From: a phage
Sequence record: PQ400055.1
DNA: 64,000 nucleotides
Strand: one strand, 5' to 3'
This document shows positions 45,767-52,673 of this stretch, one piece after another. The position numbers and the translations under genes were made by a program. Positions within the stretch are counted from its first letter, which is position 1; every line of letters starts with the position of its first letter. The notes beneath the pieces were generated by a model. The model saw only the letters and a list, made by a program, of their open reading frames with translations. It had not been told where the DNA came from and ran no database searches.

Positions 45767-46054
45767 TTACAGCATACTTAATACCGTTTGCCGTGTACTA
45801 ATCCACATAGCAGAAAGCAGTTCTGGCGTGTGTGGCTGTTTGTAGATATCACGTAACTTTCCGATAGCGTAGATATACGCATCACGGTTATCATCGATGA
45901 TAGCTTGTTCAGCCCACCGCTTAAGGCGTGCAATCTCTCGCGAGTTCTTACGCAAGATCTTTTCCGCTTTCTTAGCGGCTTTAGCCTCTAGTTCTGCTTG
46001 TACTTTGTCTACTTCATTCACTGCAATCTGGTCATGCTGTTCATTGCAAGTCAT
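45767..46054 (-). CDS. hypothetical protein
   Basis: 95 aa, predicted helical. Confidence 0.45.
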   Translation of the reverse strand: MTCNEQHDQIAVNEVDKVQAELEAKAAKKAEKILRKNSREIARLKRWAEQAIIDDNRDAYIYAIGKLRDIYKQPHTPELLSAMWISTRQTVLSML

Positions 46055-46055
46055 A

Positions 46056-46289
46056 TTATTTTACCTCTGGGATATAATCAATTATTAAAGAAAATTCATC
46101 TTCTGATACATTATAGCTATGTGAGATTGTACCCGTAAAGACCTCAAGATCCGGTGATTTGATATTGCACGGATCGATAATCACCGGAACGCCGCAATCT
46201 CTCAAAAATAATTTGGCGAAATACGGCACAAGGTCAGTTTCAAACTCTGCTTCTTCCAGCAAACGGGAAATGTTAATTTTCAATCTCAT
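46056..46289 (-). CDS. hypothetical protein
   Basis: 77 aa ORF. Confidence 0.4.
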
Positions 46290-46806
46290 AAAATTGGTCC
46301 AAGCTAGGCAATTCCTCGGTCAATACATCTTCAACCTTTGGCGCTTTCGGTTTATTGACCGATTCCTCGTAGTTGTTGATTTTATCGTAAATGTCCTGTA
46401 TGAATGCCTCATCAGCAATCTGGCACATATCAGCGTCGCGTTCGTCATATACATGATGCACAAAATATTTGTATTTTGCGGCTGTCGCTGTTCTCTCTTT
46501 TTTAATGCGCTGTACAAAAGCATTAAAGCACGCTTGCGTGATGTAAGCATGAGGATTTTTATACTTTGTCTCGTCAAAATTAATCAAACCCTTGACCGCC
46601 GCTTCGATTCCGTCGTCGATCATTTCTTCGCGCCACGTTTGACTATAACCAGAAAAGTTAAAACGACGTGATAGATTTTTAGAGATTTGCATAATTGCTA
46701 GGCCGATTTGATCGCTCATTGGAACTTGCCGACCTTCTGCTGCAATTTGTTGTTTCCAACGGCAAATTTCTTCGTAAAGCTCTTTATTGTTTACATAATC
46801 AGACAC
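46273..46806 (-). CDS. 55: late-transcription sigma factor gp55
   Basis: YVNNKEL...[58 protein letters not shown] nearly identical to T4 gp55; GTG start with RBS gaggg. Confidence 0.95.
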
Positions 46807-46846
46807 TTCGCACCCTCGCTATTATTTAGGAAATAACCCTTTCGGG

Positions 46847-48316
46847 CTATTCCCCATTACCATTATACTTTCTTTGCTTAGTTATCCACACTCTAACCAT
46901 CTCTACAGATTCGCCGTCAGACGGATCAAGAGTTTTTCCTTTTTTCTTCATGCGGTACTTAAATCCGTTAAATCTTGCATTCTCTTGCTCGTTAAAGTCG
47001 AACATCTTTTTAAATGATTTTCGCCCTTTACGTTCACCACATTCTAGCGGAATCATTCGATCTGTTATTACATTGGCATTAGGCAGAAACGTTTTTAGAT
47101 AATCCACCAACGCCCAATCAGGAACATATAGATTAACATTCTCCTTGCTCTCGTTGTCTCTCAGGTTACAACGCAAACATAATTGAAATGCTGGTTCCAG
47201 ATAATCAGACACATGACGCGCTTTCAAAAACTCGTTTGTCGGGAGATCACAACTATTAGCAAGACCTTTTAAAATATCAATCTCCCATCGTTGAGGGTTA
47301 AAGCTGAACATCACAGCAACATTTTTATGATGAATGTAAGAGTTAAGACCATAAGACCCGTAAGGTATCCGCTCACCAATACCATTTGTACACGCTTCAC
47401 GGTCCCGATTCACGGTATAAATGAAGTCATCGCCACATTCATTTTTAACCATATCAACAAGACGTTCAAAGGTATTGTTTGTTTCTGACTGGTGACGCGA
47501 CCATCGTTCAGAGTCCGTCATAAGGATGATATTAACTCTATCTGTATTTTTATACTCTTTGAAATATAGTCTGGATTCTAGCGCACTCGGAACAAAATCG
47601 CAATTTGCATAGTATCGTAGATACTTCCCACTATATGTATCAAAGAGATTTGCACATGCTATCGTAACCTTTTTAAAGTCTCCCCACGTACCGTGTTTGT
47701 TATCGTTCAAGAAAACAATTTTCGACCCATTCTTCCGGTGTCCTTCGTTATGTTTTACCATAACGTTGATTTTCTTCTCTAATAACGCCTCATAAAGCCC
47801 TCTAAGAGAAGAATCGATCATATCAGTACCATCCTTCGCACTTTCTATCTTTTCTTTGATAGCGGCCTTCTCAGAGTCTTTTAGAACTAAGTTCTGTAGG
47901 CATTCCGATTCGTCGGCGATTGGTTCGCAATGCTTCGTGATAAGTTCAAGATTAGACTTAAACGGATACTCATTAAATTCAACCAGTTGAGGAACTTCAT
48001 CAATGTAAAGAGCATAATCACCAAACATTTTTGAACGTTCCATATTAGATAACGCTGTATGTGTAATGAATATCACATCAGCACCATCTTTAACTGATTG
48101 CATTATCGACGCTTGCACTGTCTTAAGGCTTCTTAGTCTTGTGCTATCAATCAAGACAGCACGACCGCCCATTCTTTTAAACTTATTGTAAGATTGTTCA
48201 CTTAAAACACGAGATGGCGAAGCAATAACCGCTTTTTCTTTTGTCTCTAGGACGTGGGAAAGTATAGCATCAGTTTTCCCCGCCGCTGGCAATGCGATTA
48301 ATGTTTCAATCTTCAT
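46847..48316 (-). CDS. P-loop NTPase, possible helicase-like N-domain, function unknown
   Basis: 489 aa; Walker A-like LPAAGKTDA and DEAD-like YIDEVP; C-terminal ~300 aa without recognisable motifs. Confidence 0.55.
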   Translation of the reverse strand: MKIETLIALPAAGKTDAILSHVLETKEKAVIASPSRVLSEQSYNKFKRMGGRAVLIDSTRLRSLKTVQASIMQSVKDGADVIFITHTALSNMERSKMFGDYALYIDEVPQLVEFNEYPFKSNLELITKHCEPIADESECLQNLVLKDSEKAAIKEKIESAKDGTDMIDSSLRGLYEALLEKKINVMVKHNEGHRKNGSKIVFLNDNKHGTWGDFKKVTIACANLFDTYSGKYLRYYANCDFVPSALESRLYFKEYKNTDRVNIILMTDSERWSRHQSETNNTFERLVDMVKNECGDDFIYTVNRDREACTNGIGERIPYGSYGLNSYIHHKNVAVMFSFNPQRWEIDILKGLANSCDLPTNEFLKARHVSDYLEPAFQLCLRCNLRDNESKENVNLYVPDWALVDYLKTFLPNANVITDRMIPLECGERKGRKSFKKMFDFNEQENARFNGFKYRMKKKGKTLDPSDGESVEMVRVWITKQRKYNGNGE

Positions 48317-48621
48317 TAGAAACCCTTACGTCGTGCTTTCTGGCATTTCTTGATCATTTTATCAGAAATTTCGCGCTTAGGTGCAATCTCTTTCACACCG
48401 AAAGCACTAATGCCAAATTCAGAGAGAATATATTCAACAAACAATTCACGCACACGCGCTTTACCGATATTCACGCCGTTATTTTTCAGATATGTCTGGC
48501 CTTCGACTTGCATCAGATCTAAATCTGCGTCGGTAATATTGATTTCTTCCATGCGCCCAAATCGAGAATAAACCATGTGTGCGATTGCATTGTGTACTAA
48601 CATAATATATTCCTCACTCAA
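48316..48621 (-). CDS. hypothetical protein
   Basis: 101 aa ORF. Confidence 0.5.
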   Translation of the reverse strand: MSEEYIMLVHNAIAHMVYSRFGRMEEINITDADLDLMQVEGQTYLKNNGVNIGKARVRELFVEYILSEFGISAFGVKEIAPKREISDKMIKKCQKARRKGF

Positions 48622-48624
48622 GAA

Positions 48625-48783
48625 TTACTTAATGATACTTACTTTACCAGATCCATGACAATGAGCGCAACACCCATCACCACGCAATCCTGTTCCGTTA
48701 CAGTGTTTACACTTCTTCAACGGTAAAGCCATTATAGCAAATAAAGCAATAATGAATACCGAAACTAAATTCTCAATAATCAT
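48625..48783 (-). CDS. small membrane-anchored zinc-finger peptide with two CxxCxGxG motifs (not in ORF track)
   Basis: 52 aa by manual translation: MIIENLVSVFIIALFAIMALPLKKCKHCNGTGLRGDGCCAHCHGSGKVSIIK; RBS gaggg 7 nt upstream. Confidence 0.5.
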   Translation of the reverse strand: MIIENLVSVFIIALFAIMALPLKKCKHCNGTGLRGDGCCAHCHGSGKVSIIK

Positions 48784-49042
48784 AAATCGCCCTCAGTTCT
48801 TTATAGCCTCCAATGTGCTCGTTGTCAATGAATATCTGGGGGTATACAAACCGGAGGCTCTTTGAGTTTAGCCTCCCCGCCAGTTCTTCAATCATATCAC
48901 GGTCGGGAATAATGTCAACCCCGACCTGCTTGAATACTGGTTTAAGTGTATACGGAATACCCAGATCATCCAGTAGCTTCATTGCACTAATACAACCATA
49001 ACAATGATAAGCCTCTTTCGGTATACCGTATATCTCGATCAT
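48773..49042 (-). CDS. glutaredoxin/thioredoxin-fold protein (NrdH-like)
   Basis: 89 aa; CxxC active site YHCYGCIS near the N-terminus. Confidence 0.65.
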   Translation of the reverse strand: MIEIYGIPKEAYHCYGCISAMKLLDDLGIPYTLKPVFKQVGVDIIPDRDMIEELAGRLNSKSLRFVYPQIFIDNEHIGGYKELRAIYDY

Positions 49043-49560
49043 TTCTCAGCCTTTAATCTTTCTAGTTCTTCTTCCAGTTCCTTGATCCGTTGGTCACGTT
49101 CAAAGTCACGCTGTAGCTTAGTGGCAAATACTCGCTTAAACTGATTGTAATCATCGATTTTAAACACTTCTTCTTCGCCATAGCGACGTACAGAAACTTC
49201 GTAGTTGTTGAAAAATTGTTCCAACATTGCATCAGTAGTCAGTTCTGACGACACCACTTTAAAATAACGTTCTTCTGATTGCAAAAACCAGTTGTGCGCG
49301 TATTCCCGTACATCATCAACATCTCGACAGGTGTATGTTTTTCCATCAATTTCAATCGCAGAAACATATTCGATATCTGACGCAATTTTTTCAAAAGCGA
49401 TAACTTTAAATGTACGGTCACCGATAAAGTCTGCTATTGCATCATTTGCAACACTGGTTGCAAATGCTTTCCGCGCTCGCTCGTTTTTCCACTGATAGGT
49501 CATACCAACAACAAACATATTACCATCAACAAACATATTACCAACCTCGCTCTTTACCAA
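49039..49560 (-). CDS. paralogous-family protein, member 1 (one repeat unit plus coiled-coil tail)
   Basis: 173 aa; motifs GMTYQWKN...FKV...IEIDGKTYT...WF..ERYFKVV; C-terminal RIKELEEELERLKAEK. Confidence 0.55.
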   Translation of the reverse strand: MVKSEVGNMFVDGNMFVVGMTYQWKNERARKAFATSVANDAIADFIGDRTFKVIAFEKIASDIEYVSAIEIDGKTYTCRDVDDVREYAHNWFLQSEERYFKVVSSELTTDAMLEQFFNNYEVSVRRYGEEEVFKIDDYNQFKRVFATKLQRDFERDQRIKELEEELERLKAEK

Positions 49561-50362
49561 TCAAAAATTCAACTTCACGACGTTTAATGTCTTCTTGAAG
49601 GTCTTTAATCTTCTGGCGATCTTGCATGATTTCATCCATCTTGTCAAGTGCCGCAATGAAATCATCGAAACGTTCAAAGGTTTTACCTTCATTTGCTTCG
49701 CCAAATTTAACCATTGTCAGGCCGTAACGACTACTAAACAGACGTTTCAACTGTCCAACGATCTTAGAATCAGTGGTTATAACTTCCAATTCTTCTACTT
49801 CACGAAAGAATTTTCTATCAGAATCAATAAACCAGCTAGTTCCTTTATGGTCTCTATCTTCGGTTGCGCTCATTAGAGTATGGTCTTTACCATCAATTTC
49901 AATTACATCAATTTGCCCACATGGACTAACATTTTTAACAGTAAAAGGTCTATAATTTATTGCTCGTGCAATAACATAATTAAGGTTAGATACGTTTTCA
50001 GCATAATGGCAGAAGTCGGTCATAGCATTCGCATCTTTCCAAGTATAAGTTTTACCAACTTCCCATTTCTGGGGAACTTCTTCAACTTCACGAAAGAATT
50101 TTCTATCGAATGGACTAAAGAAATATGTGGCAGTCCAAATGTCTTTTCCTGTAGCAGTTTTCGCCGTATGATAAACACCGTCTAGCTCTATTGCATCAAT
50201 CCAACCGTTACCATCGATCTCGATGATGGTAAATGGCTTGTCACCAATAGCTGCACTAATATCGCTGTTAAGTGGAGAAAGAACACCTTCTCCGTTAGTA
50301 ATAAACTCAGTTTTAGCGTTTTCATCTTTCCAGGTGTAGGTTTTACCAATTTCCCATTTCAT
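49538..50362 (-). CDS. paralogous-family protein, member 2 (two tandem repeat units plus coiled-coil tail)
   Basis: 274 aa; WEIGKTYTWKDENA...PFT..IEIDG...RKFFREVEE twice, then a coiled coil. Confidence 0.55.
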   Translation of the reverse strand: MKWEIGKTYTWKDENAKTEFITNGEGVLSPLNSDISAAIGDKPFTIIEIDGNGWIDAIELDGVYHTAKTATGKDIWTATYFFSPFDRKFFREVEEVPQKWEVGKTYTWKDANAMTDFCHYAENVSNLNYVIARAINYRPFTVKNVSPCGQIDVIEIDGKDHTLMSATEDRDHKGTSWFIDSDRKFFREVEELEVITTDSKIVGQLKRLFSSRYGLTMVKFGEANEGKTFERFDDFIAALDKMDEIMQDRQKIKDLQEDIKRREVEFLIGKERGW

Positions 50363-50374
50363 AATATATTCCCC

Positions 50375-50875
50375 TTAACCGATTTTATCAAGTTCGTTTA
50401 ATGCTTTCTCTGCTTCCTGTATAGCTTGCACTCTTTCCGGCATTTTGTCAAGAAAATCTTTCAACTCTTCAAAACTGGAGATATGACGCAAGGCATTAGC
50501 ACCGATAGCCGCATGTGATTTGCATTCAAAGCGAATTTTATAATTATCCATCGCCAATTTGAGAAGGTCTATTAGATCATATTCATGACCAGGCAATAAA
50601 ACTTCTTTGAAGCACGCTCGGTCGCCATCGGAAAACCATATATTATCACCAACATCGATAGAACTAATATAATCCCCTTCGTGATTATAGATTGAACGTA
50701 CATTACCCCAACGGTCTACCGTAGCGACAGTAAATGGTTTATCTAGATATGTAAACACACCATCAATATTAGGTTTTTGTTCGTAACGCCAACAATCACG
50801 CAAAATGCGCTTTTCGTCCTCACCAACCAACTTATATGTCTTCCCTTCTTCCCATTTCATAATATCATCTCTCAT
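50375..50875 (-). CDS. paralogous-family protein, member 3
   Basis: 166 aa; WEEGKTYK...PFTVATVD...WFSDGDRACFKEV plus C-terminal coiled coil. Confidence 0.55.
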   Translation of the reverse strand: MRDDIMKWEEGKTYKLVGEDEKRILRDCWRYEQKPNIDGVFTYLDKPFTVATVDRWGNVRSIYNHEGDYISSIDVGDNIWFSDGDRACFKEVLLPGHEYDLIDLLKLAMDNYKIRFECKSHAAIGANALRHISSFEELKDFLDKMPERVQAIQEAEKALNELDKIG

Positions 50876-51402
50876 TTTTTGATACGTGATTCTAATTGGA
50901 TCATACGGTCGCGCGTTTGCTTGTATTCGCGGATAGCACCGATCCGGCTAGGCATACCATCAAGCACGCTCTTAATCCCTTCTAGGGTAGTGATTTTAGC
51001 AATGCTATTATGTAACCCCATCTTATCGATCAACTGAATGTCGTAGGCTTCCATAAGCAGACCCAGACGTTCTAAAGTTAGGTCTTCTTCTTTTTCTTCC
51101 GATTCTGGAATCTTAGGTTCAATAATAACTTCGGTAAAGAAACGACGCTCACCCGACCAAAACCACACACCGGAACAGCCAATAGGGGATTCTTTTAACG
51201 TCATAGAGTCGAAATCACTACCGATAATAGTAATTTCTCTAACATCACCATCATCGTCAATGTCTTCTACCCTAAACGGGCGACCAGCCAACAAGTCAAC
51301 AATACATCTGTTAATAGACGACGAAAATTTAGTCAGTTCGGCTTTCGACGCTTCGCATTCAATCTTGTAAGTTTTACCAACTTCCCATTCCATAATAATC
51401 AC
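50872..51402 (-). CDS. paralogous-family protein, member 4
   Basis: 176 aa; WEVGKTYK...PFRVEDID...WFWSGERRFFTEV plus C-terminal coiled coil. Confidence 0.55.
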   Translation of the reverse strand: MIIMEWEVGKTYKIECEASKAELTKFSSSINRCIVDLLAGRPFRVEDIDDDGDVREITIIGSDFDSMTLKESPIGCSGVWFWSGERRFFTEVIIEPKIPESEEKEEDLTLERLGLLMEAYDIQLIDKMGLHNSIAKITTLEGIKSVLDGMPSRIGAIREYKQTRDRMIQLESRIKK

Positions 51403-51403
51403 C

Positions 51404-51913
51404 TCAAATAATTTTCACTGGAATACTATTAACAATCTTGTATTGTACTTGATTGTCAGACCCCCGCCACGGCTTCTTCGTTGGCATATCTTTAATATAA
51501 CGCCCATCGATGAACATGTCAACTGATTCTACAATTTTTCTTTGCTCATCATTCAATTGGTCAAGGGTATAACCGGACCATAGCCAAATATCTTTATTTG
51601 GCATCCATGATTTTACTTCATCGATGATCCGCTGTACACCCTTTAAATTGCGTTTATACAGTGGATCGCCACCTAAGAATGTTAGCCCCTGAATAAAATC
51701 AGGTCTAAGCAGGTCCAGAATCAATCCCATTGTATCATCGGTGAATGGTTCCCCGTTCTTAGGATTGAGTAGGCTAGCATTAAAGCAACCATCACATGCG
51801 TGTGAACATCCGGTAACGTAAAGGGAGACTCTCACTCCCTCACCGTTAACCATATCACAATCTTTAATATCGGCATAGCGTAGTTTGCCGTATGTATCAG
51901 AACTCATATTCAA
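51404..51913 (-). CDS. nrdG: anaerobic ribonucleotide reductase activating protein (radical SAM)
   Basis: 169 aa; CSHACDGC radical-SAM cysteine motif; adjacent to nrdD region. Confidence 0.85.
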   Translation of the reverse strand: MNMSSDTYGKLRYADIKDCDMVNGEGVRVSLYVTGCSHACDGCFNASLLNPKNGEPFTDDTMGLILDLLRPDFIQGLTFLGGDPLYKRNLKGVQRIIDEVKSWMPNKDIWLWSGYTLDQLNDEQRKIVESVDMFIDGRYIKDMPTKKPWRGSDNQVQYKIVNSIPVKII

Positions 51914-52047
51914 TTACCCCGAACTCGTTTACAATCTGCGCTTTATAGTAACCACCGCGAGATGCTAATAGATAAGCTGGGCTTAGGTATTCGTATTCAC
52001 GGATTTCTACTTGTGCGTTTTCAGTTTCCCAAATCAGTAAAGTCCAC
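51897..52047 (-). CDS. hypothetical small protein (start moved to internal ATG)
   Basis: Track start 52124 lies inside the promoter cassette; internal ATG at 52047 has RBS ggag. Confidence 0.35.
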
Positions 52048-52091
52048 ATATTTGATTCTCCTGTAAAGTTGTATCTCGTCTTGATGAATAT

Positions 52092-52120
52092 AGTATAGGG
52101 GATCTCGCGATCCCCGTCAA
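52092..52120 (-). promoter_or_regulatory. sigma70-type early promoter cassette with palindromic spacer
   Basis: Minus strand TTGACG-17-TATACT; spacer GGGGATC-gcga-GATCCCC. Confidence 0.55.
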
Positions 52121-52124
52121 GCAT

Positions 52125-52673
52125 TTATTTTAAATTTTTTCGAATGTAGTCAGACCATTCCTTCCCTGTCAGTTCGGTCCCATTCTGGAAACTGAAATAT
52201 TCATACGGCATCGAGTCAAGATAAAACAGGATCATACATCGCGCCATATAATACCAATCACGATTAAAGTAAACTACGTTATCGCCAGTACCATCAGCAC
52301 CTTTATCATAACCATCGCGGGTACGGGCGACCCATTGAATAGTATCATTTTTCTCACGGATCGTAACAGGTTCCCAATATCCAGCACATCCAGCATGACC
52401 ACACGAACAAGTAATGAAATATTGTCCTTTTGCTTTGTTGTCATCCCATTCACGATGGATTGGTTCGATCTCGTGAAACAGTGCTAAGCAATCATGATTA
52501 TGCAACACTGGCTTACCATCAATCAATGCATGGAATGTATACAAACGACCCGTAGACAAATAGCTATCCTCACGCTCAACCAGTTCAATAGCAATCTTTT
52601 TAGCTCGTTCTTTGTGTCGTTGTGCTTTACGCTTACGGTTTAATGATTTCATATTCACCTCACACATTATCAA
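52125..52673 (-). CDS. hypothetical Cys-rich protein
   Basis: 182 aa; basic N-terminus; CSCGHAGCAGYW cluster. Confidence 0.5.
   Translation of the reverse strand: MIMCEVNMKSLNRKRKAQRHKERAKKIAIELVEREDSYLSTGRLYTFHALIDGKPVLHNHDCLALFHEIEPIHREWDDNKAKGQYFITCSCGHAGCAGYWEPVTIREKNDTIQWVARTRDGYDKGADGTGDNVVYFNRDWYYMARCMILFYLDSMPYEYFSFQNGTELTGKEWSDYIRKNLK

Follow-up and report, generated by a model that had tools for sequence, protein, structure and literature searches.

A conserved gene between nrdH and 55.2

The DNA analysed here is a 64,000-nucleotide stretch of phage sequence (PQ400055.1; the window). It derives from a Krischvirus, an RB49-like T4-type coliphage, and the region considered below is 93–99% identical to 59 Krischvirus genomes, with phage MIZ4 as the closest match (98.9%). 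Our subject is a small open reading frame (ORF) on the minus strand at 48625..48783, which by direct translation of the window encodes a 52-residue protein, MIIENLVSVFIIALFAIMALPLKKCKHCNGTGLRGDGCCAHCHGSGKVSIIK*, referred to below as the microprotein. It lies between an NrdH-like glutaredoxin gene and a gp55.2 homologue. On retranslation, the length of the ORF, its GAGGG ribosome-binding site (RBS) and its 11-nt overlap with the glutaredoxin gene were all exactly as the initial annotation had given them. The features of the locus are listed here.

48625..48783, minus strand: microprotein coding sequence (CDS), including the stop codon; orthologue of RB49p046 / NP_891617 / UniProt Q7Y3T0
48790..48794, minus strand: Shine-Dalgarno-like GAGGG, seen in the sequence, within the 3' end of nrdH and 6 nt ahead of the ATG at 48783
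48773..48783, minus strand: 11 nt shared by nrdH (at its end) and the microprotein ORF (at its start); the nrdH TGA at 48775..48773 lies inside ORF codons 3-4
48718..48768, minus strand: predicted single transmembrane (TM) helix, residues 6–22, LVSVFIIALFAIMALPL, with the acidic tail MIIEN before it and KK after it
48688..48711, minus strand: first CxxCxGxG motif, CKHCNGTG (C25, K, H, C28, N, G30, T, G32); invariant columns, aligned to the DnaJ and anti-TRAP motifs
48646..48669, minus strand: second CxxCxGxG motif, CAHCHGSG (C39, A, H, C42, H, G44, S, G46); invariant columns, aligned to the DnaJ and anti-TRAP motifs
48773..49042, minus strand: upstream neighbour, NrdH-like glutaredoxin of 89 residues, active site CYGC; Pfam Glutaredoxin at 23.4 bits (cut-off 22.9); phrog_22
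48316..48603, minus strand: downstream neighbour, gp55.2 homologue (DUF7570; Pfam PF24454, E=4e-28)

The upstream gene is annotated nrdH in RB49 and ECD7, and the 55.2/DUF7570 gene starts (48603) 21 nt past the microprotein stop codon. The overlap with nrdH, which is 8–11 nt long in every Krischvirus-like relative examined, is an arrangement typical of translational coupling. GAGGG or GGAGAG stands at the same place in the loci L025, L120, L122, L123 and L124.

The ORF is a genuine conserved gene under purifying selection. The conservation check proposed in the initial annotation found it intact, neither interrupted nor absent, in 59/59 Krischvirus records (tblastn; full-length, at least 95% amino acid identity) and, at the same position, in six more divergent metagenomic relatives. 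Nearly all of the differences among close relatives are synonymous and fall at third codon positions. Between the window and L025, a more divergent metagenomic relative, the ratio of nonsynonymous to synonymous substitution rates (dN/dS) comes to 0.14 for the whole gene and to 0.06 for its predicted zinc-binding part, and the sole indel traced at the DNA level in this comparison is an in-frame insertion of three codons within the TM segment. In the Felix O1 group, whose phages carry homologues of the gene, 13 of the 15 pairwise dN/dS values lie between 0 and 0.24, and the other two (0.38 and 0.58) involve very few substitutions. Values of dN/dS of 0.02–0.4, together with the excess of synonymous changes, identify a real coding gene. 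[quoted passage not shown] As for the motifs themselves, translating the entire window in six frames gives four occurrences of the pattern C..C.G.G, two of these matches containing a stop codon and the other two being the pair in this ORF, and in 200 shuffled windows the pattern occurred with a mean of 0.2 per window and a maximum of 2. Because the only stop-free matches both fall in this ORF and the shuffled mean is so low, a chance origin of the motif pair is excluded.

We also considered that the ORF could be a non-functional or chance reading frame, or an artefact, that fills the gap between nrdH and 55.2 and is kept only through conservation of the underlying DNA. Its codon usage lends this some weight, with a middling score for a short and compositionally odd gene (−0.05, compared with 0.47 for long genes, though clearly above the other two frames at about −1.0) and a rank of 85th among 126 small ORFs; a score below that of the long genes is unsurprising for a hydrophobic peptide rich in Cys and Gly. 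Rare, independent frameshifted versions of the Felix-type homologue also occur, in the Felixounavirus entries or contigs P0007, P0009 and P0010, so that phages may be able to do without the gene in certain circumstances; like the codon usage, they count against the reading that we favour below. The three versions, shifted at different points, run on into one shared out-of-frame tail, and they could be sequencing errors or occasional gene loss. Conservation of the DNA alone does not account for the locus, however, since the DNA is not conserved relative to its flanks and the ORF persists nonetheless. With synonymous substitutions strongly in excess, the only traced indel in frame, the motifs far above chance occurrence and the RBS conserved, we regard a chance ORF as very improbable.

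The initial annotation had called the ORF unannotated, which holds only for the ORF track that it worked from. In public records the gene is a CDS in RB49 (RB49p046 / NP_891617, 'hypothetical protein'; UniProt/BFVD entry Q7Y3T0), ECD7 (YP_009602012), MIZ4 (WNA14958) and Makalu_002 (QGS83651, 'putative membrane protein'), and likewise in JSE, Phi1 and GEC-3S. In the table of novel ORFs of Nolan et al. 2006 it appears as RB49ORF046c, with a weak Pfam match to an 'N-terminal methylation motif' (PMC1524935). We rejected this type IV pilin motif (PF07963), which scored 9.7 bits against a cut-off of 21.2 and matched the hydrophobic stretch only, without the G-F cleavage site.

The CxxCxGxG motifs and the predicted membrane helix

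The two motifs had initially been taken for a pair of DnaJ-type zinc fingers. Both are indeed present, but the best reading is that each contributes half of a single Zn(Cys)4 site, given the 14-residue spacing of their cysteines and the match of the predicted fold to anti-TRAP, and C25, C28, C39 and C42 are predicted to bind a single zinc ion. The family profile matched the cysteine-rich domain of E. coli DnaJ (1EXK) with E=1.8e-8, aligning to either the repeat 1–2 half or the repeat 3–4 half, and matched Bacillus licheniformis anti-TRAP (3LCZ) with E=0.019 and identical motif spacing. The AlphaFold2 (AF2) model that we used was built from 18 family sequences; a run with four sequences gave a predicted local distance difference test score (pLDDT) of 60, was too poor and was set aside. 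Over the knuckle the 18-sequence model has a pLDDT of 74–81, and its best Foldseek matches in the PDB are the anti-TRAP structures 3LD0, 3LCZ and 2BX9 (root-mean-square deviation 0.8–0.9 Å over 27–29 residues, probability 0.92–1.0), followed by DnaJA2 and BSD2.

Several scores weigh against this reading of the knuckle. The Foldseek E-values are weak (0.15–0.7) as the domain is tiny. The microprotein itself stays far below threshold with Pfam DnaJ_CXXCXGXG (PF00684; 14.6 bits, cut-off 32.7), with the NCBIfam equivalog RtpA (NF058604; 12.8 bits, cut-off 65) and with Pfam GRXCR1-2_C (PF23733; 17.6 bits, cut-off 26, E=0.0036, 12 residues only), the last of these being its top Pfam match, though a sub-threshold one. 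Matches to Gad1 and to Q antiterminators were dismissed as weak Cys-motif noise. Membership of the DnaJ family does not hold: besides the sub-threshold Pfam score, the microprotein has no J domain (no HPD and no match to the Pfam DnaJ model) and two repeats instead of four.

Anti-TRAP, the RtpA protein of Bacillus, is like the microprotein in size (53 versus 52 residues), in having two adjacent motifs and in the spacing of 14 residues from first Cys to first Cys, the same as from C25 to C39. It is a stand-alone knuckle with two CXXCXGXG motifs and one zinc per subunit that acts by binding and blocking another protein, TRAP, and the zinc is essential (PMC2896485). The two proteins differ in that anti-TRAP is a soluble protein assembled into trimers and dodecamers by its C-terminal helix, whereas the microprotein has its N-terminal TM segment as the sole helix and only a 6-residue C-tail after the second motif. 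Their settings differ as well, anti-TRAP belonging to the T-box-regulated trp control of Bacilli and the microprotein to the early region of enterobacterial myoviruses; to our knowledge, E. coli and other Enterobacterales hosts have no TRAP.

The cysteine-rich domain of type I DnaJ/Hsp40 proteins shares the chemistry of the CxxCxGxG motif and gives the strongest sequence match to the family profile, but has four repeats and two zinc ions where the microprotein has two repeats. In 1EXK the zinc sites pair repeat 1 with repeat 4 and repeat 2 with repeat 3, not neighbouring repeats. The J domain with its HPD, the G/F region and the C-terminal client-binding domains are all absent from the microprotein, and every genuine DnaJ retrieved by our motif pattern scans (described below) has an HPD-bearing J domain. 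The membrane-associated DnaJ-like zinc-finger proteins of chloroplasts (ZnJ6, LQY1, CYO1/SCO2 and OR) and BSD2 resemble the microprotein in having no J domain and in being lone CxxCxGxG modules, anchored to or associated with a membrane, that act as holdases, assembly factors or thiol-active factors (ZnJ6: PMC7865324). They differ in having four motifs and two zinc sites, in being several times larger and in having thylakoid or stromal clients; they are of eukaryotic or cyanobacterial lineage, and no orthology between them and the microprotein was detected. In our assessment, the microprotein works like a membrane-tethered knuckle of the anti-TRAP type, yet is a member of neither the RtpA nor the DnaJ family.

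The N-terminal membrane anchor of the initial annotation stands as a prediction, with residues 6–22 strongly hydrophobic (mean Kyte-Doolittle hydropathy 2.80) and a helix placed by AF2 over residues 3–18. In 22 family members taken together, the N-tails have only 1 K/R but 18 D/E, typically one Glu right where the helix begins. The 15-residue stretch behind the TM segment has 45 K/R overall, and no member has fewer than one there. A predicted hydrophobic helix of at least 15 residues and a K/R bias on its C-terminal side are both seen, as expected of a single-pass N-out/C-in protein. From this bias and the positive-inside rule, we predict that the N-terminus is periplasmic and the knuckle cytoplasmic, an orientation that would put the zinc-thiolate site in the reducing cytoplasm. 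Weighing against it, a few members are net negative after the TM segment and the N-tail of P0067 includes a Lys, so that the topology call is statistical and not absolute.

The reverse orientation would make the microprotein an uncleaved signal-anchor protein (N-in/C-out) with a disulfide-bonded, Cys-rich domain in the periplasm, where it could serve superinfection exclusion, lysis timing or envelope remodelling. Small N-anchored proteins of T4-type phages often act in the periplasm, and T4 RI, Sp and Imm are small periplasmic or membrane proteins. The Ounavirinae homologues of the microprotein moreover lie beside rIIA/rIIB, membrane-associated genes linked to lysis and exclusion, and this orientation could also draw on the net negative charge after the TM segment in some members and on PDB sequence matches to defensin-type Cys-rich peptides (E=0.1–0.8). 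The last of these are weak matches of composition, however, and the N-tails are essentially free of K/R, whereas K/R always follow the TM segment. The invariant Gly residues of CxxCxGxG and the fold match to anti-TRAP and DnaJ point to a zinc site, and such a site would not survive DsbA-driven oxidation in the periplasm. We therefore consider a periplasmic knuckle decidedly improbable.

Family, genomic context and divergence

The microprotein matched PHROG 3931, a family without an assigned function (E=4.3e-10, 40.5 bits; residues 7–48 on profile positions 15–56 of 59). A word-indexed protein search with the single sequence gave near-identical matches only, and the wider family was reached by tblastn, by two alignment-seeded searches and by a full HMMER scan of 1.84 billion proteins (representatives), which returned ~16 small proteins of 49–60 residues with the same build of a TM segment and two motifs. 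The members come from two groups, the Krischvirus-like phages and the Ounavirinae, the latter with Felix O1 ORF131 (NP_945023, 'hypothetical membrane protein') and with members in Mooglevirus Silverhawkium, Erwinia phages phiEa21-4 and Rouille, Yersinia phage P778 and Pectobacterium phage Arno162. Across 16–18 diverse members, the invariant residues are C25, C28, G30, G32, C39, C42, G44 and G46, and no others. The Krischvirus and Felix-type members have one more Cys, adjoining the second motif; in the window it is C38, directly ahead of that motif, and it is not conserved across the wider family. T4 has no counterpart between 55.2 and nrdH.

The records of Erwinia phages Rouille (54-residue member, L005 2971-3135), Tian and Pistou name the family member 'dnaJ / chaperone protein DnaJ', which we take as over-annotation, since it lacks a J domain and has two repeats only. 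In a pattern scan of bacterial genome contigs, every bacterial match was a real DnaJ; known family members apart, the same was true of all but a few matches in metagenomes, and the remainder are unrelated proteins that carry the motif. These scans thus gave no cellular counterpart of the microprotein. Other candidates were set aside: the pattern matches in Pbunavirus, S-RIM2 and RHEph05 are motifs inside large unrelated proteins, a small protein of 68 residues (L108) has a different, signal-peptide-like N-terminus, and the candidate in L012 is a soluble, multi-motif protein of 102 residues. A second tblastn match in the window (51788..51877) is the radical-SAM cysteine cluster of NrdG and not a paralogue; this anaerobic ribonucleotide reductase activase gene (51404..51913, minus strand) gave a spurious tblastn match to the Felix O1 zinc-knuckle protein.

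Soluble two-motif knuckles are common among phages, and stand-alone ones recur in other T4-like phages, as shown by RB43ORF179c of phage RB43 (L119 1411-1596), a protein of 61 residues with a two-motif knuckle (CLACNGSG...CSSCNGTG) like that of the microprotein. This protein and many 'uncharacterized' BFVD entries differ in being soluble and without a TM helix, and belong to other PHROG families, none of them characterised. Our literature searches found no characterised CxxCxGxG knuckle of ~50 residues fused to a membrane anchor, and nothing relevant on the function of this family, on Krischvirus transcriptomics or on phage membrane zinc-finger microproteins. The gene was already known as a hypothetical entry and its motifs are of a well-known class. 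What appears to be undescribed is the joining of a single anti-TRAP-like knuckle and a membrane anchor in a protein of ~50 residues, the confinement of this protein to two lineages of enterobacterial myoviruses, and its divergence at a hot spot.

The gene order is conserved in every Krischvirus-like contig: nrdG, paralogous hypothetical genes, nrdH, the microprotein gene, 55.2, a gene for a DEAD-like protein of 489 residues, and gp55. In the Ounavirinae the context is entirely different, with the microprotein gene downstream of nadV and directly upstream of rIIA-rIIB. An unrelated protein of 112–114 residues precedes the homologue in the Felix O1 and Erwinia types; these upstream partners (Felix O1 ORF130 and the 114-residue Erwinia protein) matched no Pfam family and have no homologue in the window. 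In one Ounavirinae locus (L121), an HNH endonuclease gene is inserted between the homologue and rIIA.

Within the conserved Krischvirus-like block, the microprotein diverges unusually fast. The amino acid identities of three loci to the window are listed below.

L120: microprotein 50%, NrdH 94%, 55.2 98%, nrdG 97%, DEAD-like protein 100%, gp55 99%
L124: microprotein 77%, NrdH 98%, 55.2 95%
L025: microprotein 87%, NrdH 98%, 55.2 97%, gp55 97%, DEAD-like protein 70%

For the L120 microprotein, dN is 0.375 and dS 0.92, with dN of 0.001–0.03 in the flanks. Most of the change falls within the membrane helix and the inter-motif loop; the start (MI(I)E), both motifs and the tail (GKVSI) are kept. Being the fastest-diverging gene of an otherwise near-identical block is the usual signature of a host-interaction determinant, and such rapid allelic turnover fits a role in host interaction or counter-defence. 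Two points temper this: the raised dS suggests that the L120 allele was replaced by recombination and was not subject to positive selection in place, and its dN/dS stays below 1. The gene for the DEAD-like P-loop protein (RB49ORF044c; 46847..48316, minus strand) is likewise mosaic among relatives, as its identities in L025 and L120 illustrate, and forms a second, independent hot spot of allele exchange adjoining the microprotein locus region.

A bolder reading, which we think unlikely, is that the microprotein is a fast-evolving, membrane-tethered inhibitor of the anti-TRAP type. It would serve host takeover or counter-defence, its single zinc knuckle holding a host protein from the cytosol or from near the membrane on the inner membrane. 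Horizontal exchange would have carried the gene between the unrelated Krischvirus and Ounavirinae lineages, and within Krischvirus its alleles would be swapped as cassettes in keeping with host variation.

The position next to nrdH could suggest instead that the microprotein is a thiol/redox or holdase partner of NrdH. The Zn-Cys4 knuckle would then be redox-active or client-holding and could be likened to the DnaJ cysteine-rich domain, ZnJ6, LQY1 and CYO1, and the microprotein might hold NrdH at the membrane or have NrdH as its reductant. The pair would amount to a split version of the GRXCR1/2 architecture, in which a Cys-rich domain is fused to a glutaredoxin, whereas in Krischvirus the glutaredoxin is a separate, overlapping upstream gene. 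The overlap with nrdH in every Krischvirus-like allele, down to the most divergent (48% identity for the microprotein and 59% for NrdH), speaks for such a partnership, and the top Pfam match to GRXCR1-2_C, the extra Cys beside the second motif and precedents such as ZnJ6 agree with it. The extra Cys is not conserved across the family, however, and the GRXCR match covers 12 residues below the cut-off. Furthermore, the Ounavirinae homologue is not beside a glutaredoxin, and NrdH is 94–98% identical where the microprotein is 50–87% identical, unlike tightly co-evolving partners. Taken together, we regard a role as NrdH partner as unlikely.

Proposed role at the inner membrane

The reading that we favour, at about even confidence, is that of an early inner-membrane microprotein in the N-out/C-in orientation, probably coupled to nrdH, whose cytoplasmic single-zinc knuckle binds a protein so as to recruit, sequester or block it. 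In this model, the early-region gene would yield a bitopic protein with a very short, acidic periplasmic N-tail, one TM anchor and a cytoplasmic domain of ~28 residues, and its translation would probably be coupled to that of the upstream nrdH. C25, C28, C39 and C42 of the two adjacent motifs would together hold the zinc ion and so form a knuckle like that of anti-TRAP or the DnaJ cysteine-rich domain. Most likely, the knuckle would act as a small module for protein binding, held on the cytoplasmic side of the membrane, with a host or phage protein as its target. Stand-alone CxxCxGxG knuckles are known as protein binders, and those of anti-TRAP, BSD2 and the DnaJ cysteine-rich domain offer an analogy: anti-TRAP in its free form blocks TRAP, and client proteins are held by BSD2 or by the DnaJ domain.

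The gene occurs throughout Krischvirus and widely among Felix O1-like phages, two groups that find use in phage therapy and biocontrol. The microprotein is small enough for chemical synthesis and its four Cys ligands provide clean mutational controls, making it a tractable route to what would be a new phage-host contact at the inner membrane. Should it prove to be only a minor accessory anchor, PHROG 3931 would still gain a corrected and better annotation.

Regarding expression, we found no terminator-like site on the minus strand in 46000-52500 and no T4-type late-promoter motif (TATAAATA) near the ORF, which is consistent with early or middle co-transcription. A sigma-70-like site lies inside nrdH at 48891..48918 on the minus strand (TTGACA, 16 nt, TATGAT, with a TG extension; 11/12 positions), ~105 nt upstream of the microprotein ATG. 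It could yield an internal transcript of the microprotein gene and 55.2, although it is a consensus match only and the regional promoter count is not above the shuffled expectation. An Rfam scan of the whole window matched no RNA family, and a PADLOC scan gave no match. The interval between nrdG and nrdH (49039..51402, minus strand) holds four tandem paralogous hypothetical genes, at 49039-49536, 49538-50362, 50375-50875 and 50872-51402. Their products share an N-terminal 'W-E/K-x-GKTY-x-W' module, duplicated in the 274-residue member, and a charged helical tail, and they match phrog_5347, phrog_3710 and phrog_3089 and, weakly, the goF-like phrog_2980.

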